A stretch of DNA of 54,925 nucleotides from Chloroflexota bacterium (lineage in GTDB: Bacteria > Chloroflexota > Dehalococcoidia > Lucifugimonadales > VXLM01), in NCBI GenBank assembly GCA_026713145.1, contig JAPOPA010000333.1:1-54925 (forward strand), in the 5' to 3' direction. Positions 11,504 to 50,379 of the stretch are shown in pieces; the stretch's first letter is position 1; the number at the start of each line of letters is the position of its first letter. The position numbers and the translations under genes are program-made. A model generated the notes under the pieces. That model was not told the DNA's origin. It saw only the letters and a program-made list of their open reading frames with translations, and made no database searches.

Positions 11504-11758
11504 CTAGGCTTTTGCGGTGTTCAGTCGACGTAGGAGCCGGGACTTGCGGCGCGCAGCGTTGCGCTTGTGTACGGCCCCCTTCTGAGCAGCCTTGTCGAGC
11601 GCCACGATGGCCTGCATCGTGGCGGCCTCTGCCGCTTCCATATCCTCCGAGGCGATCGAAATGCGGGCCTTACGGACGAATGTCTTCGCTCTGGAACGAA
11701 TGGGGCGCTTTCGCTGAAGCTTACGCTCAGCGACACGCTGTGATCTTGCTGCTGGCAC
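11504..11758 (-). CDS. rpsT: 30S ribosomal protein S20
   Basis: 84-aa basic protein: SQRVAERKLQRKRPIRSRAKTFVRKA...HKRNAARRKSRL is a typical S20. Confidence 0.95.
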   Translation of the reverse strand: MPAARSQRVAERKLQRKRPIRSRAKTFVRKARISIASEDMEAAEAATMQAIVALDKAAQKGAVHKRNAARRKSRLLRRLNTAKA

Positions 11759-12501: not shown

Positions 12502-12530
12502 TTGACCGAATAAACTTTGGATAGTATTCT
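12502..12530 (+). promoter_or_regulatory. candidate sigma70-type promoter of the collagen-like gene
   Basis: TTGACC (12502-12507), 17-nt spacer, TATTCT (12525-12530), in an AT-richer intergenic stretch. AAGGAG RBS lies before the ATG at 12589. Confidence 0.35.
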
Positions 12531-12588
12531 ACCTGCGACGCTTTAGAACTCGTATTGTGCTTGGTAGATCAACAGAAGGAGAAGCTAA

Positions 12589-13818
12589 ATGTCTAGAGGT
12601 TTTGTTCGCAGACGTTTCGGCATCGCGGCCTTTATGGTCATGATCGTTACTGTCTTGCTTGCTTCTGCCTGTGCCGGCGACACCGGTCCTCAGGGAGAGC
12701 GGGGCCCCGCAGGGGAGAGAGGGTCGGCAGGTGCCAATGGTGCACAAGGCCCGCAGGGCTCGCAAGGAGAGACAGGCCCGCAAGGAGCGACGGGACCTCA
12801 AGGCCCCGCAGGACCTCGGGGCCCGCAGGGTGCCACTGGTCCCCAAGGCTTGACGGGGCCGGCTGGCGCGCGTGGCCCGATAGGGCTGGAGGGCGCACCG
12901 GGAATTCCTGGACCACAGGGACCTCAGGGTGAGCGGGGCGCCACGGGCGCCACGGGTCCGCAGGGTTCTCAAGGCCCTCAGGGTGAGCCGGGCGAGCAGG
13001 GCCCACAGGGCGATCCGGGTGGACCGCAAGGGCCTCAAGGTGAACAGGGCCCAGAGGGCCCACAGGGCGAGAAGGGCGACACCGGTGATACCGGCCCACA
13101 GGGCGAGCAGGGTGACCCTGGCGATCCGGGAGGACCTCAAGGTCCTCCGGGACCACAAGGTCCGGTTGGACCTCAGGGGCCCATTGGCCAGCGCGGCATA
13201 AAGGGTGATACCGGACCGCAAGGTGCCGCTGGCCCCACGGGCGAACGAGGACCACAGGGCACTGCCGGCGAGCAGGGACCGCAGGGTCCTCAAGGCGCAC
13301 AGGGAGCTCAGGGCCCACAAGGCGAGACTGGTCCGCTGGGACCGGAAGGCCAACGTGGCCCACAGGGAGCTCAAGGCCCGGAGGGAGCTCAGGGGCCGCA
13401 GGGAGAGCCTGGCCCGCAAGGACAGGAAGGCCAGCAGGGTCCGCAAGGTCCTGCCGGTCAGCGCGGTCCTGTAGGACAGCAAGGCGAGGCCGGACCGCAC
13501 GGCCCGCAGGGCGAAAAGGGCGACCCCGGAGTCAGCGGCCTTCAGATCGTGACGAAGGACAGCGAGCTGGATAGCGACAATAAGTCGGTAACGGTGCTCT
13601 GTGAAGAATCCGGTTCGGAACTGACTGCAATAGCCGGCGGCGGATTGGTTACCTTGTCTAACGGTGCTGTTGCCTCTGGCGTTGCTATCGCAGGTTCCCG
13701 CCCGACTGGACTGGCAGGTGAGACTCCAGGTGGATGGGTCGCCAACGCGACCGAAGTGGGTGACAATGCCTCGAGCTGGAAACTCACCGTCTACGCCGTC
13801 TGCGCTATCGTCCACTAA
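12589..13818 (+). CDS. bacterial collagen-like (Gly-X-Y triple-helix repeat) surface/lipo-protein
   Basis: N-terminal signal/anchor ([19 protein letters not shown]), then about 95 G-X-Y triplets rich in GPQ/GER/GEQ, then a 92-aa non-collagenous C-terminal domain with two Cys. Confidence 0.85.
12676..13539 (+). repeat. coding Gly-X-Y triplet repeat (9-nt periodic GGN-NNN-NNN)
   Basis: Continuous G-X-Y from G30 to G317 of the protein. It is broken twice by a single extra Gly, both times in the context GDP-G-GPQ. Confidence 0.9.
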
Positions 13819-16704: not shown

Positions 16705-17310
16705 ATGAGAGAGCTCCTCCACGACCTCTCCGACTGGCTCCTCGGATTCGCGGATAGCGACTGGGCCATTGTCGTTCTGCTTGTCAGCTCTTTCGCCGAG
16801 TCGATTTTCTTCCCCATACCTCCCGACCCATTACTTCTGGCCGTGGCTATTGTCCAGCAGCCGATCGCGGCCCTGCTCGGGGTGCTCGTTGCCGTTGCAT
16901 CGGTCGCCGGCGCGGTCGTGGGCCACGCGCTCGGCATGCGGCTTGGAAGACCCATCCTTGCAAAGATGTTTAGCGAGAGTCGGGTGGCATATGTCGATCG
17001 ACTCTTCGAGCGATTCGGCGTCTGGGCCATCCTCATCGCGGCCTTCACCCCCGTGCCATACAAGGTGTTCGCTATCGCGGCGGGCGTGTGGCGCATGGAC
17101 AGGCGCAAGTTCGTCATTGCCTCGGCCATTGGACGTGGTGCTAGATTTGGAACGATTGGCGTCTTGGTCTTTCTGTTGGGTGAAGAGATCGAAAAGTTCC
17201 TGACCGAGAACTTCGAGCTGTTGACCATCGGAGTATCGGTTGCGGCTGTCGCCCTGGGTGCCGGATGGTACCTATTCCATCGCCGTCGACGTCGGCAGTC
17301 TAAAGAATAG
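16705..17310 (+). CDS. YqaA/DedA-type (VTT/SNARE-associated domain) membrane protein
   Basis: ESIFFPIPPDPLLLAVAI motif and FTPVPYKVFAIAAG, as I recall for YqaA-like proteins. Polytopic. Confidence 0.75.
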   Translation: MRELLHDLSDWLLGFADSDWAIVVLLVSSFAESIFFPIPPDPLLLAVAIVQQPIAALLGVLVAVASVAGAVVGHALGMRLGRPILAKMFSESRVAYVDRLFERFGVWAILIAAFTPVPYKVFAIAAGVWRMDRRKFVIASAIGRGARFGTIGVLVFLLGEEIEKFLTENFELLTIGVSVAAVALGAGWYLFHRRRRRQSKE

Positions 17311-17322
17311 ACGAACGGTGTC

Positions 17323-18474
17323 TCACTCGGCGGTTGTGTAAAGCTCAGTTTCCGGGTTCCAGTCCGTCCATGCGAACCAGAACGACAGATGAGACGGCAC
17401 TCGCTTCAGCTTCGTCCCGGCGAGAGGCCCTTCTGTTGCAACTCCGGTAAAGGCCTCCCACATTGTGCCGGTCTCACGGTCGCGGAGCATCGATCGAAGG
17501 CCGTCCTCTTCCCCGAAAGTCTCAAAGGTAAAGTGATGCTCGCCTACGCGGGACTCGTACATTACGCCCGTGCTTGAAATGCGATCGAAAACGACAACTA
17601 CGCTCACGCCTCCTACCTCGTCATTGACCACGCCCTGCTTGGCCAGGGTTCCAATGGGATAGGCTTTGGAAATGCCGGCCAAATTGACACCGACGACGAG
17701 CGCCTTGGTATGCAGCCTGTCGTCTTCGACGCGCTCGCCGATTACTCCGGGTTCGGAGCTCTCGTAGTAACCCTCATATCGGTCGCCTTGGTATCGGCCA
17801 CGCTTGTCGAGCACCAGCGTTTCGGGGTGAGCGGCCTTCCAGGCCTCCCAGGTCGTATGGATTAGCGGCGTCAAGTCAAGAGTCTTTCCGGCCAGTGAAC
17901 CCTCGACGCCCTTACCCAGAAACTGACTCCAGAGCGTATCGGTCTGGTGGTCGTACATGACGAGCGCGTTCATAATGAGCTTGCCCGACACGCCGAAGGT
18001 GTGCTCTTGTCCGTCGATGAGGCGGGAATAACCTATTCCCGAGTAGCACAGCGGTCACCAGGTGACGGCGACCGGCTCACCCCCCACCACATCGTTCACG
18101 ATTTCGTGGCGGCTCAGCATCGAGACGGGGTAGGCCTTGTGCTCCCCGCCGATTGAGACGCCAAGCACGCCTTCATCCGCCGTCATCCATCGGGCTGCCT
18201 CCATAGCCGAAACAAACTCCGGCTCAACGATCGCGGGAATGGCGTCCTTGCCCAGGAGGCGTACGATTTCGAACTCCCGGTCCCCTTCCACCCCGGGATC
18301 GTCAGGTATGGAGACCACCTCGCTGTCAAGTTCAGGCCCCCAAATCAGATACCGTGCGGCGGGAATGATCAGGAACGCCAGACCTATGATGAGGATGCTC
18401 AAGATGAATATTCTAGCTGGCATAACGTCCCAGTCCGGTAGGGTGATGTATGTATTGGATGATCCCTCGAGCAC
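17323..18474 (-). CDS. DUF3179-family membrane-anchored protein with one in-frame TGA (candidate selenocysteine, U-P-L-C motif); alternatively a nonsense pseudogene
   Basis: Track ORFs 18055..18474 and 17323..17991 share one frame (1152 nt = 384 codons). They are separated only by TGA at 18055-18057. Read-through gives ..GGEPVAVTW-U-PLCYSGIGYSRLIDGQEHTFGVSGKLIMNALVMYDHQTDTLWSQ.., the DUF3179 core as I recall it, with TGA at the first Cys of CPLC. Confidence 0.6.
18023..18041 (-). promoter_or_regulatory. candidate bacterial SECIS hairpin
   Basis: mRNA: UGA + 13 nt, then C-GGGAAUA-[GGU]-UAUUCCC-G, a perfect 8-bp stem. The apical GGU loop starts about 25 nt from the U of UGA. Confidence 0.5.
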
Positions 18475-18985: not shown

Positions 18986-20077
18986 GTGCGAACATTCTGG
19001 AAGGAAGTGTTATTGTGCAGTCTAGGGGCTCTAGCATTGGTTGCGACCGTTGCGTGCGGCAGCCAGTCGGAGTCTACTAAACCTGCCCCAACAACTCGGC
19101 CTGCCCCAACGCCTGAGCCTCAGATCGTTGAAGTAGCAAGCGACCCCGGTTCGCTGGTCGTCTACTCAGGACGAAGCGAATCTCTGGTCGGCCCGATCAT
19201 CGAGCAGTTTCGCGAGGCGACGGGTATAGACGTTTCGACAAAGTACGGAAGCACAGGAGAGATCGCGGCGACGATCCTCGAAGAGGGCGGCAATAGTCCT
19301 GCCGATGTGTTCTTCGCGCAGGACCCAGGAGGTCTTGGAGCTGTCGCGCAGGCTGGAATGCTTAACGTATTGTCGGGTGATATCGCAGGCCTTGTTCCCG
19401 GCTGGGCTCAGTCGCCGACCGGGCTTTGGGTCGGAATCTCCGGACGTGCGCGTACCCTCGTTTACAACACCGATCGCCTCTCAGAGGACGATCTCCCCGC
19501 ATCGATTTTCGACCTGACCGATCCGAAGTGGAAGAGCAGGTTGGGCTGGGCCCCGACGAATGGCTCTTTCCAGGCGATGGTAACGGCCATGAGAGTGCTG
19601 TGGGGAGAGGAGAAAACGATCGAGTGGCTAGAGGGCATCAAGGCCAACGAACCAGGCATCTACCCAAAGAACACTCCTCAGGTAGCTGCTGCCGCGGCAG
19701 GCGAGATTGACATCGGCCTCGTCAACCACTACTACCTCCATCGGTTTCTCCAGGAAGAGGGCGATGCATTCGGCGCGCGAAACTACCATCCGACTGCCGG
19801 CGGGCCAGGAAGCCTTGTATTGGTCGCTGGGGCAGGTATCCTGAAGACGAGCCAAAACCAAGAAAACGCTGAGAAGTTCCTCAAGTTCATGCTCTCGAAG
19901 GTTGGTCAGCAGTACTTTGCGGGGCAGACCTACGAGTATCCCCTCGTCGAGGGAGTCAAGACGAACCGCCTCCTGACGCCGATTGATGAGATCGACAAGC
20001 CGGACGTCGACATGGCGGACCTCGCCGATCTGGAAGGCACACAGCGCCTGCTTCGCGAGCTTGGTATCCTCGAGTAG
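18986..20077 (+). CDS. ABC transporter periplasmic/extracellular substrate-binding protein, Fe(III)-type (FbpA/AfuA-like)
   Basis: Signal peptide ending ..LVATVACGS, then SLVVYSGRSESLVGPIIEQFREATGIDV... typical of PBP2 Fbp-like binding proteins. Followed by a duplicated-domain permease and an ATPase. Confidence 0.75.
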   Translation: MRTFWKEVLLCSLGALALVATVACGSQSESTKPAPTTRPAPTPEPQIVEVASDPGSLVVYSGRSESLVGPIIEQFREATGIDVSTKYGSTGEIAATILEEGGNSPADVFFAQDPGGLGAVAQAGMLNVLSGDIAGLVPGWAQSPTGLWVGISGRARTLVYNTDRLSEDDLPASIFDLTDPKWKSRLGWAPTNGSFQAMVTAMRVLWGEEKTIEWLEGIKANEPGIYPKNTPQVAAAAAGEIDIGLVNHYYLHRFLQEEGDAFGARNYHPTAGGPGSLVLVAGAGILKTSQNQENAEKFLKFMLSKVGQQYFAGQTYEYPLVEGVKTNRLLTPIDEIDKPDVDMADLADLEGTQRLLRELGILE

Positions 20078-20128
20078 CCTTGTAACGGAGAAGTCACCGC
20101 CCCCTTGATTGCAGAAGGACCACCCCCG

Positions 20129-20180
20129 CTTGCCGACCCCGCCGGAGAGCACCTCCCCCGGCGGGGTCGGCAAGACTTTT
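20129..20180 (+). terminator. intercistronic stem-loop (attenuator/mRNA stabiliser) between binding-protein and permease genes
   Basis: Perfect 17-bp inverted repeat CTTGCCGACCCCGCCGG / CCGGCGGGGTCGGCAAG (20129-20145 / 20158-20174), 12-nt loop, followed by ACTTTTC. Confidence 0.55.
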
Positions 20181-20197
20181 CGAGGCGACCTCCCGCG

Positions 20198-21769
20198 ATG
20201 GTTATGGTCCCGGCCGTATTGGTCGGCCTCGCCATGTTGCTCCCCATAGCCTACTTGGCTATACGCGGCGCGGGGGCGACGACCGAGGCATGGGAGCTTC
20301 TGTTCCGTGTCCGTACGCTTCAAATCATTGGCAGAACGACGCTGCTCGTGGTCGTGGTTACTGGGTTCTCGATTCTCTTGGCCGTGCCGCTCGCCTGGCT
20401 TACGTCGCGGACCGACCTACCGTTTCGTCGGGTGTGGTCGGTACTGACTGCCATGCCGCTGGTCGTGCCGACTTTCGTGGGAGCCTTTCTGTTCATATCA
20501 GTTCTTGGGCCGCGCGGCGTTCTGCAGCAGGCCCTCGAACCGCTGGGTGTGGATCGCCTGCCGGCCATCTACGGCCTGCCGGGCGCGGCGCTGGTGCTGA
20601 TACTTCTGAGCTACCCGTACATTCTGCTCACAGTCAAGGGGGCGTTCCAAGGACTCGATCCCGCGCTTGAAGAGTCGGCGCGAACCCTCGGACACGGGAG
20701 GATGAGCACGGCGTTCCGAGTGACCCTGCCGCAGCTCCGCCCCGCCATAATCTCCGGCTCCCTGCTCGTGGCCCTCTACACGCTGAGCGACTTCGGCGCC
20801 GTGTCCCTGATGCGGTTCCCGACGTTCACGTGGGTAATCTACCAACAATACCAGACGGCCTTCGACCGGAGCATTGCTGGGGTCCTATCGCTCGCGCTGG
20901 TCGGGATGGCACTGGCCATCGTTCTCATTGACTCGTACACGCGCGGACGTATTCGGTATCACCGCACCGGCTCCGGGGCTTCGCGGAAGGCCGAGGTTGT
21001 CCGACTGGGGCGATGGAGATGGCCCGCGCTGGCATTCGCGGGCTTCGTGGTGGTGATGGCGTTGGGGATTCCGGCAGGAGTGCTGCTGCACTGGCTCGTG
21101 CGGGGATTACTGGTGGGCGAACCGCTGCTCCTGCTCTGGAGCGCTACGGTGAATTCCCTAGTCGTGTCGGGCGCTGCTGCGTTCGTTGCCGCGGTCTGCT
21201 CCATTCCCGTCGCTGTGATGGTCGTGCGGCATCCCGGTAGGCTTTCCAATGTCATCGAGCGTATGAGCTTCACCGGATTCGCCCTGCCGGGGATCGTAGT
21301 AGCCCTGGCCTTGGTATTCTTTGCAGTCAACTACGCAAGACCCGTGTATCAGACAGCATGGCTGTTGGTGTTCGCATATGTTGTGCTCTTTCTGCCTGCG
21401 GCGATGGGTGCAACTAGAGCCGCGCTGCTCAAGGTCAGTCCGAGTCTTGAGGACGCAGCGCGAGGTCTAGGCCGCGGTCCCCTGCAGACTATGCGGACGG
21501 TCACCGCTCCACTCATCGTGCCGGGCATCCTCATGGGAGCTGCATTGGTGTTCCTGATAGCTATGAAGGAGCTTCCCGCTACGCTGATACTGGGCCCGCT
21601 GGGATTCAAGACGCTGGCAACCGCGGTGTGGTCGGCTTCCACGGAGGCGTTCTTCGCGCAGGCGGCGGCACCGGCGCTCTTGCTCATCGTGATATCCTCA
21701 TTACCCATGGCCTTTCTCGTGACACGCGATTTCGGGGAGTCGACCTCCTCCGGGAGTGACTACTCGTGA
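20198..21769 (+). CDS. ABC transporter permease, two fused transmembrane domains (FbpB-like)
   Basis: Two EAA-loop-containing halves (..LEESARTLGHGRMSTAFRVTLP.. and ..LEDAARGLGRGPLQTMRTVTAP..). Start placed at the ATG at 20198 because the TTG-initiated track ORF would include the 17-bp hairpin. Confidence 0.85.
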   Translation: MVMVPAVLVGLAMLLPIAYLAIRGAGATTEAWELLFRVRTLQIIGRTTLLVVVVTGFSILLAVPLAWLTSRTDLPFRRVWSVLTAMPLVVPTFVGAFLFISVLGPRGVLQQALEPLGVDRLPAIYGLPGAALVLILLSYPYILLTVKGAFQGLDPALEESARTLGHGRMSTAFRVTLPQLRPAIISGSLLVALYTLSDFGAVSLMRFPTFTWVIYQQYQTAFDRSIAGVLSLALVGMALAIVLIDSYTRGRIRYHRTGSGASRKAEVVRLGRWRWPALAFAGFVVVMALGIPAGVLLHWLVRGLLVGEPLLLLWSATVNSLVVSGAAAFVAAVCSIPVAVMVVRHPGRLSNVIERMSFTGFALPGIVVALALVFFAVNYARPVYQTAWLLVFAYVVLFLPAAMGATRAALLKVSPSLEDAARGLGRGPLQTMRTVTAPLIVPGILMGAALVFLIAMKELPATLILGPLGFKTLATAVWSASTEAFFAQAAAPALLLIVISSLPMAFLVTRDFGESTSSGSDYS

Positions 21770-22821
21770 GCACATTCGCAGTGCGCTGCAACGGGTTGAC
21801 CAAGCGGTACGGCGAAGTGGCGGCGGTGGAGGGCGTCGATCTCGCGGTGCAGCCGGGAGAGATCCTGTCGATTGTCGGGCCAAGCGGTAGCGGCAAGACG
21901 ACGACGCTGCGCCTAATCGCCGGGTTCGAGTCAATTGACGCTGGTGAAATATCCCTGCGTGGAGAGGTCGTTTCCGGCCTCAAGACACACGTGCCGCCCG
22001 AGCGCAGGCGAGTCGGGATAGTCTTTCAGGAACATGCGCTATTCCCGCACAAGACGGTCGGCGAGAACGTTGCGTTCGGACTCCACAAGCTTGGAGCGAG
22101 TGAACGGTCGGAGCGTCTCAGAGAAGCTCTGGAACTTGTGCGGCTCACTCACCTGGAACGGCGGTACCCTCACGAGTTGTCGGGCGGGGAACAACAGCGG
22201 GTGGCGTTGGCCCGCGCTTTGGCCCCGAATCCGGCAGTGCTGCTGCTGGACGAGCCGTTCTCGAACTTGGATGCAGACCTGCGGGCGCGAATCAGGGGAG
22301 AGGTCAAGTCAATCCTTGCAGACGCTGGCGTGACCGTAGTGTTCGTGACGCACGACCAGGACGATGCCCTGTTCATGGGAGACCGGATAGCGATCATTAA
22401 TGAGGGGCGTATCGAGCAATCGGGCACGCCGGAGCAGGTGTTCCACGAGCCGGAAACGAGGTTTGCGGCGGGCTTCCTCGGCGTTGCGGACTTCCTTCCG
22501 GCTGAATATTCGAACGGAACAGTAAAGACCGAGCTTGGCTCATTCCCGATGAGCGGGGAGAGCTCTGGGCTGTGTGAAGTGATGACGCGGCCCGACGACA
22601 TCGAGGTGACTCGGTCGCCCGAGGGGAGCGCGAGGGTGCTGTCGAGAACGTTTCAGGGGATTTCCGACCTGTATGTGATCGAACTACCGTCGGGAGCGGT
22701 GGTACGGGCGGAGCGTCCACACCATAAACGGTTCGAGCCGGGGGATAGTGTGCGGGTCACGGTCGCGCCGCACTACGTGGCACGATGCTTCGCACAGGCG
22801 GACGGGAAGCTGATGACGTAG
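21766..22821 (+). CDS. ABC transporter ATP-binding protein (FbpC/PotA-like, with C-terminal TOBE-like domain)
   Basis: Walker A GPSGSGKTT, signature LSGGEQQRVALARAL, Walker B LLLDEPFSNLD. GTGA overlap with the permease gene. Confidence 0.9.
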   Translation: MSTFAVRCNGLTKRYGEVAAVEGVDLAVQPGEILSIVGPSGSGKTTTLRLIAGFESIDAGEISLRGEVVSGLKTHVPPERRRVGIVFQEHALFPHKTVGENVAFGLHKLGASERSERLREALELVRLTHLERRYPHELSGGEQQRVALARALAPNPAVLLLDEPFSNLDADLRARIRGEVKSILADAGVTVVFVTHDQDDALFMGDRIAIINEGRIEQSGTPEQVFHEPETRFAAGFLGVADFLPAEYSNGTVKTELGSFPMSGESSGLCEVMTRPDDIEVTRSPEGSARVLSRTFQGISDLYVIELPSGAVVRAERPHHKRFEPGDSVRVTVAPHYVARCFAQADGKLMT

Positions 22822-30353: not shown

Positions 30354-31724
30354 ATGAAAATGCGTAAGCCAAGGTCGATTGACCGTCACCTCCGTACAAT
30401 TGGCGCCCTTCCTCTGATACTTCTGCTTTTCCTCACTGCCTGCAACACCGGCGGCGATTCGACATCAGTCTCGCCCACAAGGGAGGTGGCAACCCCCACT
30501 CCCGAAGCCTCGGCCCGCACCGCGTCGGCACCCCCAACCCCGACCGCGATCCCAACTGAGACCGTGCCGACGGGTTCACCCGACCCGGAGCGAACGGCGC
30601 TGACGGCCCTCTACGATGCCACGGACGGGGCCGACTGGAAGATAAACGACGGTTGGCTTGGCGACGGCGGTCTTGACAAATGGCTACGTGTGACTACAGA
30701 CGAGAATGGCCAAGTTACGGGTCTGGACCTCGGGTCCAACCAGTTGACCGGGGAGATACCGGCGGAACTGAGTAACCTCTCTCGCTTGGAACTGCTCTAC
30801 ATCAGTGACAACAACTTGACCGGAGCGCTTCCGCAAAGTTTAACGGGAATATCAGGGCTGGAGACCTTCCACTTCCACAATAACCCGGGTCTATGCGCCC
30901 CAATTGACGAGACTTTCCAAGCATGGTTACGCGGAATTGCCGAAGTACGCGGCAGCAGTTGCGCACCCGAGGACTCGTTGGAAGACCGGGAGGTGCTGGT
31001 GCAGCTATACAACGCCCTGGACGGGGAGAACTGGAATATCAACGCCAACTGGCTGACCGAACTGCCAATCAGGCAGTGGTACGGAGTCACAAACGATGCG
31101 AGCGGACGGGTCAATGGACTCTCGCTCGATGGGAATGAGCTGACCGGGGAGCTGCCGGCGGCGTTGGGCAGCCTCTCCAACCTGCAGAGGTTGGAACTTA
31201 GCAACAACCAGCTAAGTGGCGAGATTCCGACCGAACTGGGCAGCCTCTCCAACCTGCAGAGGCTGGAACTTGGTAACAACAAGCTCACTGGCGAGATTCC
31301 GCCAGAACTGGGTAACCTCGGAAACTTGGAAATTCTGTTACTCGGTTCCAACCAGTTGACCGGAGAGATTCCGATGGAGTTGGGCAGCCTCTCCAACTTG
31401 GAAACTCTGGTCATCAAGATTAATCAGTTGACTGGGGAGATACCGAAAGAACTAAGCAACCTCTCTAACTTGCGGATTTTGGTTCTTATGGCCAACCAGT
31501 TGACTGGAGAGATACCGACTGTTCTGGGCAGTATGTCCAACCTAGTAACCCTGGAACTCAACTACAATTACTTAACCGGGGAGATACCGACGGAGTTGGT
31601 CAACCTCTCCAACCTGAATACTCTGATGCTATTCGGAAACCAGTGGAGCGGATGCATCCCAGCGAAACTGAGCGACGTCCCGAAAAGCGATTTCCACTTT
31701 GCGGGCATGCCATCCTTCTGTTAA
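30354..31724 (+). CDS. leucine-rich-repeat lipoprotein with plant-specific-type 24-residue LRRs
   Basis: Lipobox LFLTAC, Pro/Thr/Ala-rich linker, then two modules. Each opens with LxxLYxAxDGxxW..W..WxGVT..G.V.GL.L and continues with LxLxxNQLTGEIPxELGxLSNL repeats (2.5 + 7.5 copies). Confidence 0.85.
   Translation: MKMRKPRSIDRHLRTIGALPLILLLFLTACNTGGDSTSVSPTREVATPTPEASARTASAPPTPTAIPTETVPTGSPDPERTALTALYDATDGADWKINDGWLGDGGLDKWLRVTTDENGQVTGLDLGSNQLTGEIPAELSNLSRLELLYISDNNLTGALPQSLTGISGLETFHFHNNPGLCAPIDETFQAWLRGIAEVRGSSCAPEDSLEDREVLVQLYNALDGENWNINANWLTELPIRQWYGVTNDASGRVNGLSLDGNELTGELPAALGSLSNLQRLELSNNQLSGEIPTELGSLSNLQRLELGNNKLTGEIPPELGNLGNLEILLLGSNQLTGEIPMELGSLSNLETLVIKINQLTGEIPKELSNLSNLRILVLMANQLTGEIPTVLGSMSNLVTLELNYNYLTGEIPTELVNLSNLNTLMLFGNQWSGCIPAKLSDVPKSDFHFAGMPSFC
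31119..31661 (+). repeat. 72-bp tandem coding repeat (LRR units)
   Basis: The 25-mer GGGCAGCCTCTCCAACCTGCAGAGG recurs exactly at 31166 and 31238 (72-nt offset). Further diverged copies continue to about 31660. Confidence 0.8.
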
Positions 31725-40577: not shown

Positions 40578-41407
40578 GCTATCAACGACGTAAAGTAAGG
40601 GTAGGTAGAGTCGTAGGCGACAAGATGGACAAGACGTGCATCGTCGAGGTGGAGTGGCGCAGCTTCCACAGGAGATACAAGAAGTCTATCCGTCGCCGCT
40701 CACGCTTCAAGGCCCACGATGAGAAGAACACGGCCCAGCTCGGCGACACGGTGACGATTATTGAAAGTCGCCCGACATCCAAGACCAAGCGTTGGCGACT
40801 GGTCAATATCGTCGATCGCCAGGAGTTTGTCGAACTCCCGCCTATGGATATCGTACCCGCTGATGAGGTCGAGACCCCTATGCCGGCGCTGGTTATCGAA
40901 GAGGTGGTTTCTCGGGAAGAGGAGACTCCGGTCGAGGTAGTTGCTGACGACGCCCCGGATGTACCCGAAGCGGGAATCGACGACGAATCCGCCGAAGGTG
41001 ATGAAGGCGACGAGGAGATGGCGGAGTCCGAAGCGGTGGAGGTCGATGCGGCTGAGAGCGCCGAAGTCGAAGACACTCCGGCTGATGAGACGTCCGAGCC
41101 TGAAGACAATTTAGAAGAGACGGCAGAGAGTAGCGACAAAGAGGATACTCCCGTCGGTGAAGAGTCTGAGGCTGAAGAGGCGCTGGAGGGCGCGGACGAC
41201 GATGAGGAGACCCCGCCCGAGGAACCATCCGAACCTGAGGCCGCAGTAGATACCATAAACGATGGTGACGCCCCCGCCCAGGAGGAAGAGGAAGAACCTG
41301 AAGTTGAGCCTGCCGAGACTCCGGAGAGCGGCGCGGAAGCGGAGACCCCTGTAGACGAGAGTGAACCAGTGGACGAGAATGCTGACGAGGAGAAGTCGCG
41401 ACCATGA
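40574..41407 (+). CDS. rpsQ: 30S ribosomal protein S17 fused to a ~190-residue hyper-acidic C-terminal extension
   Basis: Residues 1-85 are a normal S17 ([23 protein letters not shown]...[29 protein letters not shown]). The frame stays open for 192 more codons rich in E/D/A/P/T. ATGA overlaps at both ends (rpmC, rplN). Confidence 0.9.
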
Positions 41408-41772
41408 TTCAGATTTATTCCAGGGTCAAGGTCGCGGACAATTCCGGCGCGAAGACCATTAGCTGCATCGGCGTGCCGGGCGGGAGCGGACGCAAGTACG
41501 CGGGTCTCGGCGACATCATCGTCGCCTCCGTGAAGGAGGCCGCTCCTGCATCGCCCGTAAGAGAAGGCGAGGTCGTGCGCGCGGTCATCGTCAGGCTCAC
41601 CAAGCCGACTCGGCGACCCGACGGTTCCCACATCCGCTTCGACGAAAACGCTGCGGTCATTATCGGTGAGAACCAGATGCCGCGTGGAACGCGCATATTT
41701 GGTCCCGTCGCCCGAGAGCTTCGTGAGCAGAACTTCATGCGTATCGTATCGCTGGCTCCGGAGGTGCTGTAA
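41404..41772 (+). CDS. rplN: 50S ribosomal protein L14
   Basis: [17 protein letters not shown]...[11 protein letters not shown]...[13 protein letters not shown] is a typical L14. Confidence 0.97.
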
Positions 41773-41773
41773 C

Positions 41774-42085
41774 GTGAGACTGCGAGTTGACGATACGGTC
41801 CTGATTACCCGGGGGAAAGACCGGGGCAAGACGGGCCAGATACAGCAAATATTCGAAAAGCAAAACAAGGTGCTCGTCGAAGGCATAAACGTCGTTTCGA
41901 GACACACAAAGGCGACGGGGAACATTCGACAGGCCGGAATTGTGCAAAAGGAACTGCCGGTCCCGGTAGCCAATGTTCGTCTCATCTGCCCGCATAGCAG
42001 CAAGCCGGTAAGAGTCGGGTACACAAGGCTGGCGGACGGCGCAAAGGCGAGAGTCTGCAAAGAGTGCAAGGAAGTAATCGAGTGA
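41774..42085 (+). CDS. rplX: 50S ribosomal protein L24
   Basis: Start set to the GTG at 41774: VRLRVDDTVLITRGKDRGKTGQI (KOW motif). Confidence 0.93.
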   Translation: MRLRVDDTVLITRGKDRGKTGQIQQIFEKQNKVLVEGINVVSRHTKATGNIRQAGIVQKELPVPVANVRLICPHSSKPVRVGYTRLADGAKARVCKECKEVIE

Positions 42086-43214: not shown

Positions 43215-43760
43215 ATGTCGAGAATAGGAAAACAGCCTGTCCAGGTACCATCGGGCGTCAATGTTGACATCGATGGGCGGACGGTAACGGTTAAGGGGCC
43301 GAAGGGTACCCTGACCGACACGTTCCACGCCGACATGGCGGTCAAGACCGACAACGGCGCGGTCACCGTCGAGCGGCCTTCTGACGCCGGTGAACACAAG
43401 GCGCTGCACGGCCTCACTCGGAACCTGATAGCGAATATGGTGACGGGCGTCTCCGAAGGTTACGCACGGTCGCTGGAACTGGTGGGCGTCGGCTATCGCG
43501 TGCAGCAGAGCGGCAAGGGCATCAAACTCAGCGTCATGCTCAGCCACGAGGTGGACTATCAGCCGCAGGACGGCATTTCGATCGCCGTCGAGGGCAACAA
43601 TCTCATTCATGTTTCAGGCATCAGCAAGCAAGCGGTCGGCCAGACCGCTGCCGAGATCAGAAAGGTCCGGCCCCCGAGCGTATATACGGGCAAGGGCATC
43701 CGCTATCGGGGCGAGCAGGTCCGCTTGAAGCCGGGCAAGAGCGCCAGGAGGGTTGTGTAA
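43215..43760 (+). CDS. rplF: 50S ribosomal protein L6
   Basis: [33 protein letters not shown] is a typical L6. Confidence 0.97.
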
Positions 43761-43764
43761 GGAC

Positions 43765-44130
43765 ATGGGACGCAAGACTGCATACTCGCGTCGAATAGCG
43801 CGCCATACTCGCGTTCGTCAAAACTTGGGCGGAACGGCGGAACGGCCTCGCTTGGCGGTTTTTCGCAGCTTGAATCACATCTACGCTCAGGTTATCGACG
43901 ATGTGGCAGGCGTGACCCTGGCCGCGGCCGGAAGCACAGAGTCCGACGTCCGATCGCAAGTAGACGGCGAGCCGAAGGCCGCTGTATCGGCAATGGTCGG
44001 TACGCTCGTCGCGCAGCGTGCGGTGGAGATAGGTGTCGGAACAGTCGTCTTCGACCGGGGCGGCTACAAGTATCACGGACGGGTAAAGGCGCTTGCAGAT
44101 GCAGCGCGCAAGGGAGGTCTTTCTTTCTAG
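43765..44130 (+). CDS. rplR: 50S ribosomal protein L18
   Basis: [34 protein letters not shown]...[24 protein letters not shown]. Start is either the ATG at 43765 or the TTG at 43753. Confidence 0.93.
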
Positions 44131-44131
44131 A

Positions 44132-44734
44132 ATGGTCAGCAGAGGCCGACGATCCGACAGATTTGAAGAAGAAGACTCGGACGGCATTCAGAGCCGAACC
44201 GTCAACATATCCCGCGTTTCCAAGACCGTAAAAGGCGGACGCAACCTGAGCTTCAGCGCCGTGGTTGTCGTCGGGGACGGCAACGGGAGTGTTGGCATCG
44301 GGCAAGGCAAGGCTAGCGCTGTGCCGGATGCCATCCGAAAAGGGGAGACGAGGGCGCGGAGCAGTATGGTGCAAGTGCCTCTCAGCGGTAGTACCATCCC
44401 ACACGACATCCTCTCGCGCTATGGCGCGTCCGAGGTCATGATGCGGCCTGCCAGGCCCGGCACCGGAGTCATCGCGGGCGGGGCCGTTCGCGCCGTCGTC
44501 GAGCTAGCGGGCGTCAAAGATATCGTGACTAAGGCCAGGCGAAGCACCAACCCGATCAACACAGTCAAGGCGGCCTTTCATGGGCTTCAGATGCTCAAGG
44601 AACCGAAGGTTGAGATGGAAAAGCGACAGCAGTTGATTGAGGCGCCTCCGCAGCCGCGGAGACGCGATCGGCAGCGCCGTCGCCCGCCACGGCTGGAACC
44701 TCGACCGAGGAACCCGGACGGTGAAAGGCACTAG
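44132..44734 (+). CDS. rpsE: 30S ribosomal protein S5 with Arg/Pro-rich C-terminal tail
   Basis: Start at the ATG at 44132, right after the rplR stop. [38 protein letters not shown] is a typical S5. Confidence 0.94.
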
Positions 44735-48656: not shown

Positions 48657-48756
48657 ACCCGGAAAGGCGCCACTAGCTGCATCAGGTGCAGCAGCGCCCG
48701 TCGCTTTAAAGACAGGGCGTTTGGTCGTCGTGACGCGCGGATTAGGAAGTGCAAAT

Positions 48757-48870
48757 ATGAAAGTATCCACATCGGTCAAAAAGAGGTGCGCCAACTGTCG
48801 GGTCATCCGACGGCGTGGCAGAGTCATGATCATATGCAGCAACCTGCGCCACAAGCAGCGGCAGGGCTAG
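48757..48870 (+). CDS. rpmJ: 50S ribosomal protein L36
   Basis: 37 aa from the ATG at 48757: [46 protein letters not shown]. Confidence 0.95.
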
Positions 48871-48879
48871 GAGACGAAT

Positions 48880-49260
48880 ATGGCAATCGTATCCGGAGTG
48901 AACATTCCCGACAATAAGCGCGTCGAGATATCCCTTACGCGCATTTACGGAATCGGGCGCTGGCAGGCGAAGGATGTTGCAAGCAAGGCCGGCGTCGAGG
49001 GCAATCCCCGGGTCTCCGACCTGACCGAGGCCGAGCTTACACGCATTCGCGAGATCGTCGACCGCGAAAAACTGGTCGAGGGTGATCTTCGACGCGAGGT
49101 GACGGGCAACATTCGGCGGCTGATTGACATCGGCACGTATCGAGGCAACCGCCATCGGCGGGGACTCCCCGTGCGCGGTCAGCGCACCCACACAAACGCG
49201 CGCTCTAAGCGTGGGCGCCGGGTGCCGGTAGCCGGCAAGCGACAGATCAGCAAGAAGTAA
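48880..49260 (+). CDS. rpsM: 30S ribosomal protein S13
   Basis: [24 protein letters not shown]...[23 protein letters not shown]-like motifs. Confidence 0.97.
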
Positions 49261-49290
49261 TAACAGACCCAACGATTCGAGAGGACTATC

Positions 49291-49680
49291 ATGCCGAGAG
49301 CGCCGAGAACACGAAGAAGGGAACGGAAGTCTGTCCCAGTGGGTCGGGCCTACGTCCAGTCGACCTACAATAACACCATCATCACGCTCACGGATCCTCA
49401 GGGCAACGTGATCGCCTGGAGCAGCGCAGGGTCGCTGGGGACGTTCCGCGGCTCCCGCAAGTCCACGGCATTCGCTGCCCAGCGGGCCGGAGAGGATGTC
49501 GCCCGCAAGGGCATGGATCACGGTATCCGGCAGGTTGAGGCTTTCATTCGAGGTCCCGGAGCCGGACGGGAGGCCGCCGTTAGGGCCCTGACCGCCGCGG
49601 GTATCCTCGTCACCAGCATTCGCGATGTAACGCCAATCCCTCACAACGGATGTAGGCCCCGCAAGCGCAGGCGCGTTTAA
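49291..49680 (+). CDS. rpsK: 30S ribosomal protein S11
   Basis: [44 protein letters not shown]...[18 protein letters not shown]. Confidence 0.97.
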
Positions 49681-49743
49681 CAACGACGGTCTAGACCACC
49701 GTCCAATCGCTACGGAAACGCAAGGAGAAACGGACAGACACAC

Positions 49744-50379
49744 ATGGCACGAAACACCGAAGCCGTATGCCGCCAGTGCCGACGCATTGGCGAAAAGCTC
49801 TTCCTCAAAGGCGACCGCTGCTACTCCCCCAAGTGCGGAGTCGAGCGACGCCGTCGCCCGCCTGGAGACCAGGGCACACGCCGTCCACGCCGGCCTACCG
49901 AATGGGCGCTCCAACTACGTGAAAAGCAGAAAGCGCGATTCACCTACGGCGTACTGGAGCGACAGTTCAAGAAGTACTTTGCCGATGCCCGCGAGAGCCA
50001 GGGTGTAACGGGCGACGTGCTCCTCCAACTGCTGGAACGGCGGCTCGACAATGTCGTCTATCGCCTGTCGTTCGCTGACTCCCGACCACAGGCAAGACAG
50101 ATCGTCAACCATGGCCATTTCAACGTCAATGGAAGGAAGGTCAGCATCCCGTCGTTTCGAGTTCGACCCGGTGACGTAGTAACTTGGCGCAGGGTGACCG
50201 ACGACACCACGCCCGGATTCGTGGATGCTCTTACGGACGGCATTCCGAAGCGGCCGGTCCCAACTTGGCTCAAGCTCGAACCCGGCACGCTTACGGGAGA
50301 GGTGCTGTCCCTGCCTGAGCCGACGGAGATAGACACTGGCATTGACGTGAGACTTATCGTGGAGTTCTACTCCAGGTAG
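49744..50379 (+). CDS. rpsD: 30S ribosomal protein S4 (zinc-ribbon type)
   Basis: CRQCRRIGEKLFLKGDRCYSPKC, S4 domain RLDNVVYRLSFADSRPQARQIVNHGHFNVNGR. Confidence 0.97.
   Translation: MARNTEAVCRQCRRIGEKLFLKGDRCYSPKCGVERRRRPPGDQGTRRPRRPTEWALQLREKQKARFTYGVLERQFKKYFADARESQGVTGDVLLQLLERRLDNVVYRLSFADSRPQARQIVNHGHFNVNGRKVSIPSFRVRPGDVVTWRRVTDDTTPGFVDALTDGIPKRPVPTWLKLEPGTLTGEVLSLPEPTEIDTGIDVRLIVEFYSR

Follow-up and report, generated by a model that had tools for sequence, protein, structure and literature searches.

The stretch of DNA analysed here (hereafter the window: 54,925 nucleotides of contig JAPOPA010000333.1, assembly GCA_026713145.1, from a Chloroflexota bacterium of the class Dehalococcoidia) carries on its minus strand, at 18423..17323, what we hold with high confidence to be a single gene for a DUF3179 protein of 366 residues decoded with selenocysteine (Sec), and not two gene fragments separated by a stop codon. 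The gene is intact, its in-frame UGA and the hairpin that follows are under selection, and the UGA takes the place of a cysteine codon; insertion of Sec in this organism would depend on SelB. An initial annotation, made from the sequence alone, had proposed one Sec-containing DUF3179 protein instead of two open reading frames (ORFs), and this proposal is supported by the match to family PF11376, by the presence of TGA in 85/85 orthologous copies and by covariation in the hairpin; each of its suggested checks that was run gave a favourable result.

The whole region 18474..17323 (-) is a single frame of 384 codons, in which the TGA at 18057-18055 is the sole internal stop and the TGA at 17325-17323 the terminal one. 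Reading the sequence bore out what the initial annotation had said of this frame and its one interruption, and gave the same translation across it, ...HEIVNDVVGGEPVAVTW-[UGA]-PLCYSGIGYSR... (also given as ...GEPVAVTW-[TGA]-PLCYSGIGYSR...). The frame and the single joined product stand, but the start at 18474 and the length of 383 residues do not, the GTG at 18474 being a merely mechanical ORF start. The ATG at 18423-18421 was preferred because the orthologues at loci L003, L005 and L009 lack any start codon 5' of the equivalent Met, which just 3-4 sense codons precede. From this comparison the most likely gene span is 18423..17323 (-), which would encode 366 residues with Sec at residue 123, and the extension at 18424..18474 (-) is probably a noncoding 5' leader. 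The terminal TGA (17323..17325), 3' of which no relevant hairpin lies, shows that UGA also serves this genome as an ordinary stop.

The joined translation, with X at the UGA, matched PF11376 end to end across the TGA (profile positions 1-292 of 292; E 2.8e-89), with a score of 299.9 bits against a gathering cut-off of 27; NCBIfam holds no model for the DUF3179 family. Aligned in this way, X falls in the column of the first Cys of CPLC, as the initial annotation had placed it, and the second Cys (C126, encoded by the TGC at 18046..18048 (-), the putative resolving or partner Cys) is invariant. We looked at the best 120 proteins from a homologue search that covered 5.8 billion. Sixty were full-length homologues (about 370 aa, 41-53% identity to the window protein); at the UGA column 53 of these have Cys, six have Ser and one has Arg (C/S/R-P-L-C). 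Every match above about 55% identity, amounting to 60 of these 120, was a fragment of 216-245 aa that starts just past the UGA position. The residues U-P-L-C (123-126) place Sec at position 1 of the conserved (C/U)xx(C/T) motif of the subfamily.

A scan of one genome per GTDB species yielded 80 loci, all from metagenome-assembled genomes (MAGs) of Dehalococcoidia or Chloroflexota, including chromosome-level long-read assemblies and a SAR202 bin; the isolate names of some suggest sponge or seawater samples. Complete chromosomes among the nearest relatives are OZ220720.1 (87% identity), OZ244722.1 and OY759598.1. Together with five extra within-locus paralogues, these loci hold 85 DUF3179 copies with 47-89% identity to the window protein, and all 85 have TGA at exactly this codon. 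The comparison of TGA and Cys in this column that the initial annotation had suggested was clear-cut, with TGA in every copy and Cys mostly in the full-length homologues. None of the copies contains a stop within 40 codons 5' or 40 codons 3' of the TGA, and column entropy on both flanks was 1.3-1.4 bits at third codon positions versus 0.4-0.6 at first and second positions; the UGA is conserved and coding-type selection acts on both sides of it. Together, the universal TGA, the stop-free flanks and the coding-type entropy exclude a pseudogene, a sequencing error and a split gene whose spacer is untranslated.

Directly after the UGA, the transcript can form the hairpin CGGGAAUA-GGU-UAUUCCCG (C-GGGAAUA-[GGU]-UAUUCCC-G) at 18041-18023 (-), in which the perfect 8-bp stem and GGU loop read by the initial annotation were found again; in most orthologues the stem has 7 bp. 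The stem begins 14 nt past the A of the UGA, and the loop begins at nt 25 counted from the U. Perfect 8-bp hairpins with loops of 3-7 nt occur in the window at 0.27 per kb per strand, and the chance that one starts in the 22-nt span after a given codon is about 0.6%. Moreover, the 25-nt stretch that contains the hairpin is among the most stable 2.6% of such stretches in the gene.

In a gapless alignment of 66 columns (A1), where columns 29-36/40-47 correspond to the helix at window positions 18041-18023, the helix was seen in nearly every copy. Helix cells were paired in 90.7% of cases, versus 31-43% with the 3' arm slid by 1-3 columns, and 73 helix cells were changed in both partners; in 500 shuffles the observed values for paired cells, double-change cells or covariation score were never reached. 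At pair 32-44, GC (42 sequences) alternates with CG (38), and pair 33-43 occurs as CG (49), UA (21) or AU (11). The helix core is also recovered by RNAalifold, and G37 in the apical loop is invariant. The pairings run between codons (GGA...UCC, GCC...GGC, GCU...AGC, GGC...GCC and AGC...GCU), and Ser is written UCC opposite GGA and AGC opposite GCU. Since Ser switches codon family so that complementarity is kept, this pattern of substitution argues for a constraint at the level of the RNA and not of the protein. In brief, a stem-loop lies directly 3' of the UGA at a conserved position, with compensatory changes and a G in its loop, and the likeness to a selenocysteine insertion sequence (SECIS) noted in the initial annotation extends to the orthologues, where the hairpin is kept in register.

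Genes without the TGA were also compared. The helix is absent in four distant Cys forms (L081-L084) and decayed in two Cys forms that lie inside the Sec clade (L089 and L090); the TGA paralogue beside the L089 Cys copy keeps it (CUGGCAU/AUGCCAG). It is retained in L085, whose TGT copy (CLLC) has a TGA copy as its tandem neighbour, and in L086, a gene inside the Sec clade with AGA (Arg) at the Sec codon (L086:466-468) and an intact hairpin. Both are apparently recent revertants from Sec, the AGA of L086 being either a very recent Sec loss or an error in a 2.3-kb contig. Tandem DUF3179 pairs with one Cys (TGT) copy and a TGA neighbour occur at L085:3001-5510 and L089:1-1900, and at L090:227-1761 the Cys copy without a hairpin adjoins a 125-aa N-terminal DUF3179 fragment. 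On a quick neighbour-joining distance tree, which is indicative only, all 82 Sec forms group in a single clade, which includes just four non-Sec sequences (L085, L086, L089 and L090), and parsimony puts Cys at the root; this topology fits a single Cys-to-Sec origin with few reversals. Tandem duplicates of the Sec form itself are present at L057, L067, L068 and L069 (second copies at about 11550-11610), both copies having the TGA and the hairpin.

Regarding the genetic code, the 63 greedy ORFs of at least 90 aa in the window end in TAG (39), TGA (16) or TAA (8), and UGA ends pxpB (in an ATGA overlap), an ABC permease and the DUF3179 gene itself. Reassignment of UGA is excluded because the codon is an ordinary stop here, ending 16 of the 63 ORFs. 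As a separate observation, all 20 plus-strand ORFs listed in the ribosomal-protein and translation cluster (32590-53551) have TAG or TAA as their stop; among bacterial stop codons TAG is as a rule the least used. A crude scan of other ORF pairs joined by a single TGA gave no further credible selenoprotein in the window.

The Sec trait and a tRNA-Sec of the 8/4 type have been recorded in Chloroflexi (PMC1794560; PMC5389517). When E. coli SelA, SelB and SelD were searched by tblastn against the window and all related loci, only selD was found, at L075:12459-13496 (-) and L076:12749-13771 (-), matching TIGR00476 with 380 bits against a cut-off of 125. Both genes lie beside cysK and 2.5 kb from the Sec-DUF3179 gene, and both have, in frame, a TGA where the E. 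coli protein has Cys17 (plus-strand coordinates 13448 in L075 and 13738 in L076) followed about 27 nt 3' by a hairpin, GGCGCAGG/CUGCGCC. By these features they encode the well-known Sec-containing SelD, which marks the Sec trait in the lineage. SelB-like matches in L067-L069 proved to be LepA, recognised by the NFCIIAHIDHGKST motif, and a SelA-like match in L005 was DgaE, of the SelA-related family TIGR01437.

DUF3179 is not new as a selenoprotein family. The initial annotation had left as a question whether Sec forms had been described, and they have: two reviews list DUF3179/PF11376 as a selenoprotein with the motif UxxC/T (PMC9312934; PMC13188914), both citing Zhang and Gladyshev 2007 on Olavius symbionts; their representative sequences are MBW1804167.1 and MDJ0986319.1. 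The 2007 study of the Olavius delta-1 symbiont reported a new family, OS_HP1, with three Sec genes and predicted SECIS elements, and a survey of the Global Ocean Sampling data gave OS_HP1 the motif UxxC, no Pfam family at that time, and one Sec versus 69 Cys homologues (PMC2398784). OS_HP2 corresponds to pfam07610. From the table order and the motif, and stated in none of these papers, OS_HP1 is very probably DUF3179. The window gene is thus a further member of a selenoprotein family listed since 2007, with a known bacterial decoding mechanism. It resembles the earlier members in matching the same Pfam family end to end, in having Sec at position 1 of UxxC and in the stem-loop just 3' of the UGA; however, the earlier reports comprised few Sec sequences, whereas here the Sec form was present in 80/80 sampled Dehalococcoidia/Chloroflexota species, often as tandem paralogues. 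Across the sampled genomes the Sec form seems to be fixed in a large Dehalococcoidia clade. We found no description of the Sec form across such a clade, of tandem Sec/Cys pairs with a fossil SECIS or of the scale of mis-annotation.

Comparison with other Sec systems is also informative. As in the SECIS of E. coli fdhF, the hairpin lies within the coding sequence directly after the UGA and has a G in the apical loop; unlike fdhF, only a short helix of 7-8 bp is conserved, the lower stem enclosing the UGA is not, and a bulged U is not apparent. The distance from the UGA to the loop is 21 nt, within the 16-37 nt that bSECISearch accepts. The Sec-SelD of L075 and L076 shares the in-frame TGA and downstream hairpin, but is a different protein encoded outside the window and serves as supporting evidence only. 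DsbA/DsbE/DsbG-like selenoproteins are likewise extracytoplasmic (as predicted here), membrane-tethered and equipped with a UxxC/CxxC motif; in contrast, the DUF3179 fold is not thioredoxin-like, its modelled structure being an all-beta duplication with only weak Rieske/NirD-type matches in the Protein Data Bank (PDB).

By analogy with fdhF, the UGA at 18057-18055 (-) would be decoded as Sec, with the hairpin at 18041-18023, starting 14 nt downstream, acting as a bacterial SECIS. Bound to this hairpin, SelB loaded with guanosine triphosphate and Sec-tRNA(Sec) would supply the ribosome with Sec. The product would then be exported, its N-terminal signal-anchor holding the protein at the outer face of the membrane, and only repeat 1 of its duplicated domain would carry the site formed by His106 and U123-P-L-C126.

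A conserved UGA with a hairpin shows recoding and does not by itself identify the inserted residue, and no part of the Sec machinery was found within the window. The hairpin could in principle stimulate suppression by a near-cognate tRNA (Trp or Cys), or some other recoding, so that residue 123 is not Sec. We consider such read-through without selenium improbable, since the site is occupied in homologues by Cys, which is chemically analogous to Sec, DUF3179 is already classed as a selenoprotein family, the related genomes L075 and L076 hold a Sec-type selD near the gene, and the position of the hairpin and its loop G fit the bacterial SECIS rules used by bSECISearch. Furthermore, no hairpin-driven Trp or Cys suppression system is known in bacteria. 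Gene callers, for their part, predict exactly the pieces expected if the UGA terminated translation, that is, a 122-aa anchored N-terminal protein and a C-terminal fragment with a start of its own (GTG 17991, for example), which may associate. Half of the 120 closest proteins are such C-terminal pieces, and among the 149 best library representatives at 50% identity 66 are fragments of at most 270 aa, most of those checked beginning just past the Sec codon. A split gene is nevertheless highly improbable: the 63 nt that the initial annotation had noted as stop-free in the window correspond to 21 codons, from the UGA to the first possible restart, that are free of stops in 85/85 copies, and they encode some of the best-conserved residues (PLC...FGVSG) with synonymous variation. 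The possible restart codon, moreover, shifts between clades (MSGKL, MNALV, MY.R), and the invariant partner Cys126 would be lost.

An in-frame stop is also what a recently inactivated DUF3179 gene would display, and the AGA of L086 indicates that the codon can mutate. Even so, further stops and frameshifts would pile up in a pseudogene, and the comparative data refute this explanation, an identical TGA being found in all 85 copies from 80 species, at 47-89% identity and with coding-type substitution on both sides; we regard it as extremely improbable. A single-base difference would suffice for the TGA to be a sequencing or assembly error for TGC or TGT, an explanation whose probability is practically negligible, given that the same TGA recurs in 85 independent copies from many projects, in short-read as well as long-read chromosome-level assemblies, and that the hairpin accompanies the TGA: no such hairpin occurs in the four distant TGY (Cys) forms, and two nearer ones have it in decayed form.

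Several observations weigh against a Sec-decoded gene and have to be set beside this evidence. The hairpin signal from the single sequence is modest, because the 76-nt region around it folds no more stably than shuffles (z = 0.24), and the weight of the hairpin evidence comes from the comparison with other genomes, in which the covariation that the initial annotation had proposed to examine was borne out. An extended lower stem enclosing the UGA, similar to that of fdhF, was found in L006-L009 and rejected as not conserved (54% paired). Rfam gave no SECIS or other relevant family, either over the whole window at gathering thresholds or at 17960-18100 at E-value thresholds. The 55-kb window contains none of selA, selB, selC and selD. 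ARAGORN detected no tRNA of any kind in the window, nor did it detect a tRNA-Sec among 1.55 Mb of related loci, where little is expected of it, the Chloroflexi tRNA-Sec being of the unusual 8/4 type. Across all loci, no constant partner gene or redox partner lies beside the DUF3179 gene. Finally, the proposed chemistry is without a solved homologue: a PDB sequence search with the DUF3179 profile found nothing, and an AlphaFold2 model of the Cys homologue P0021, which has two similar beta-rich domains (mean predicted local distance difference test score 86, predicted template-modelling score 0.80), gave no Foldseek match in the PDB at E <=0.001. The consistent ones among its weak matches were all of Rieske fold (NirD, AioB and Rieske ferredoxins; E 0.017-0.1, target template-modelling score 0.38-0.59).

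The Sec-decoded protein has a hydrophobic N-terminal signal-anchor at residues 5-23 (IFILSILIIGLAFLIIPAA; 18355..18411 (-)) with a mean Kyte-Doolittle hydropathy of 3.0, which is predicted to remain uncleaved. A hydrophobic N-terminal segment is present in 82 of the 85 orthologues, and about 34 of them have a lipoprotein-type signal, consisting of an h-region, A/G-C and then a linker rich in Ser, Pro and Asp; the Cys homologues have the same N-terminal export feature. Because lipoprotein-type signals occur in many orthologues, the DUF3179 domain is very probably exported and tethered to the membrane at its outer face.

Residues 86-202 (repeat 1; 17818..18168 (-)) and 243-359 (repeat 2; 17347..17697 (-)) form an internal duplication, with 35% identity over 117 aa (E 6e-19), which is also seen in the model of P0021. 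Repeat 1 reads H106-E-I-V-N-D...W-U123-P-L-C126, and repeat 2, which is degenerate, reads Q-G-V-V-N-D...F-D-R-I-S, D-R-I-S replacing U-P-L-C. The HEIVND block (18091..18108 (-); His106, Glu107, Asn110 and Asp111) is confined to repeat 1, and across 44 sequences E107 and D111 never vary, while conservation of H106 and N110 is at least 90%. A Rieske-type [2Fe-2S] domain was rejected, as the CxH...CxxH ligands are absent and just His106 and U123xxC126 are present, which leaves at most a resemblance in fold; a thioredoxin-fold oxidoreductase was likewise rejected, the P0021 model being a duplicated beta-rich domain with no thioredoxin-fold Foldseek matches. Most likely, the site would cycle between selenol/thiol and selenenylsulfide states, or would use Sec, Cys and His as ligands for a metal or metalloid. 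The domain also occurs in multi-copy arrays, with 4-6 DUF3179-matching stretches in each of the proteins P0121 (1587 aa) and P0123 (1004 aa).

The window is otherwise ordinary chromosome, with a cluster of genes for ribosomal proteins, EF-G, SecY and RpoA, together with lexA, prs, NAD kinase and other housekeeping genes. The DUF3179 gene lies between a gene for a DedA/VTT membrane protein (16705-17310, +), beyond which lies pxpABC, and a divergent ATP-binding cassette (ABC) importer (18986-22821) composed of a solute-binding protein, a double permease and an ATPase. Synteny with DedA/VTT, the solute-binding ABC transporter and pxpABC is kept only in L001-L009 and L011, and the neighbours that recur across loci, a GNAT acetyltransferase and a sulfatase, are uninformative. 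A DedA protein has reportedly been implicated in selenite uptake in Cupriavidus/Ralstonia; a link of the adjoining DedA/VTT gene to selenium is speculative.

Elsewhere in the window, 30354-31724 (+) encodes a protein of 456 aa that has a hydrophobic segment at its N-terminus and numerous leucine-rich repeats (LRR_1, LRR_8 and LRR_4); sponge symbionts typically carry "eukaryote-like" repeat proteins of this type. The isolate name of the closest relative, L001 (SB0661_bin_13), may indicate a sponge MAG, and the record titles state no source. Two ORFs on opposite strands, 12529-13815 (-) and 12589-13818 (+), of 428 and 409 aa, overlap nearly fully; the minus-strand ORF has no Pfam match and is conserved in L001-L005 at 53-68% identity. 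Long ORFs also run antisense to the ribosomal-protein/secY cluster, at 40582-42069 (-), 48742-49914 (-) and 43657-44187 (-). A Pfam scan of 48742-49914, the one of the three that was scanned, gave no match, and all three are almost certainly spurious, arising from high GC content.

In brief, the window gene reveals no new recoding mechanism and no new selenoprotein family; its significance lies in annotation and in the biology of the clade. Public gene calls split the gene, which makes for large-scale mis-annotation of Dehalococcoidia DUF3179, and surveys of selenoproteomes that rely on such calls will miss Sec-DUF3179. The family is large, with 7,095 representatives at E <=0.001, and the conserved His...UxxC site offers a handle on these roughly 7,000 clusters. 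A cell-surface selenoprotein under strong selection in a large marine and sponge-associated Chloroflexota clade, as predicted here, would also bear on the selenium demand of the ocean. Taking all parts together, we tentatively suggest, as a possible though still doubtful combination, that Sec-DUF3179 is an exported selenoprotein, present lineage-wide and essentially fixed in marine and sponge-associated Dehalococcoidia (SAR202-like), which would have arisen once from a Cys ancestor, undergone repeated tandem duplication and occasional reversion to Cys or Arg with a fossil SECIS, and been systematically mis-annotated as a fragment of 216-245 aa. If this is true, an abundant ocean clade depends on selenium for a cell-surface function, and that function resides in a duplicated, Rieske-like beta fold that had not been characterised before and that has a His/Sec/Cys site.

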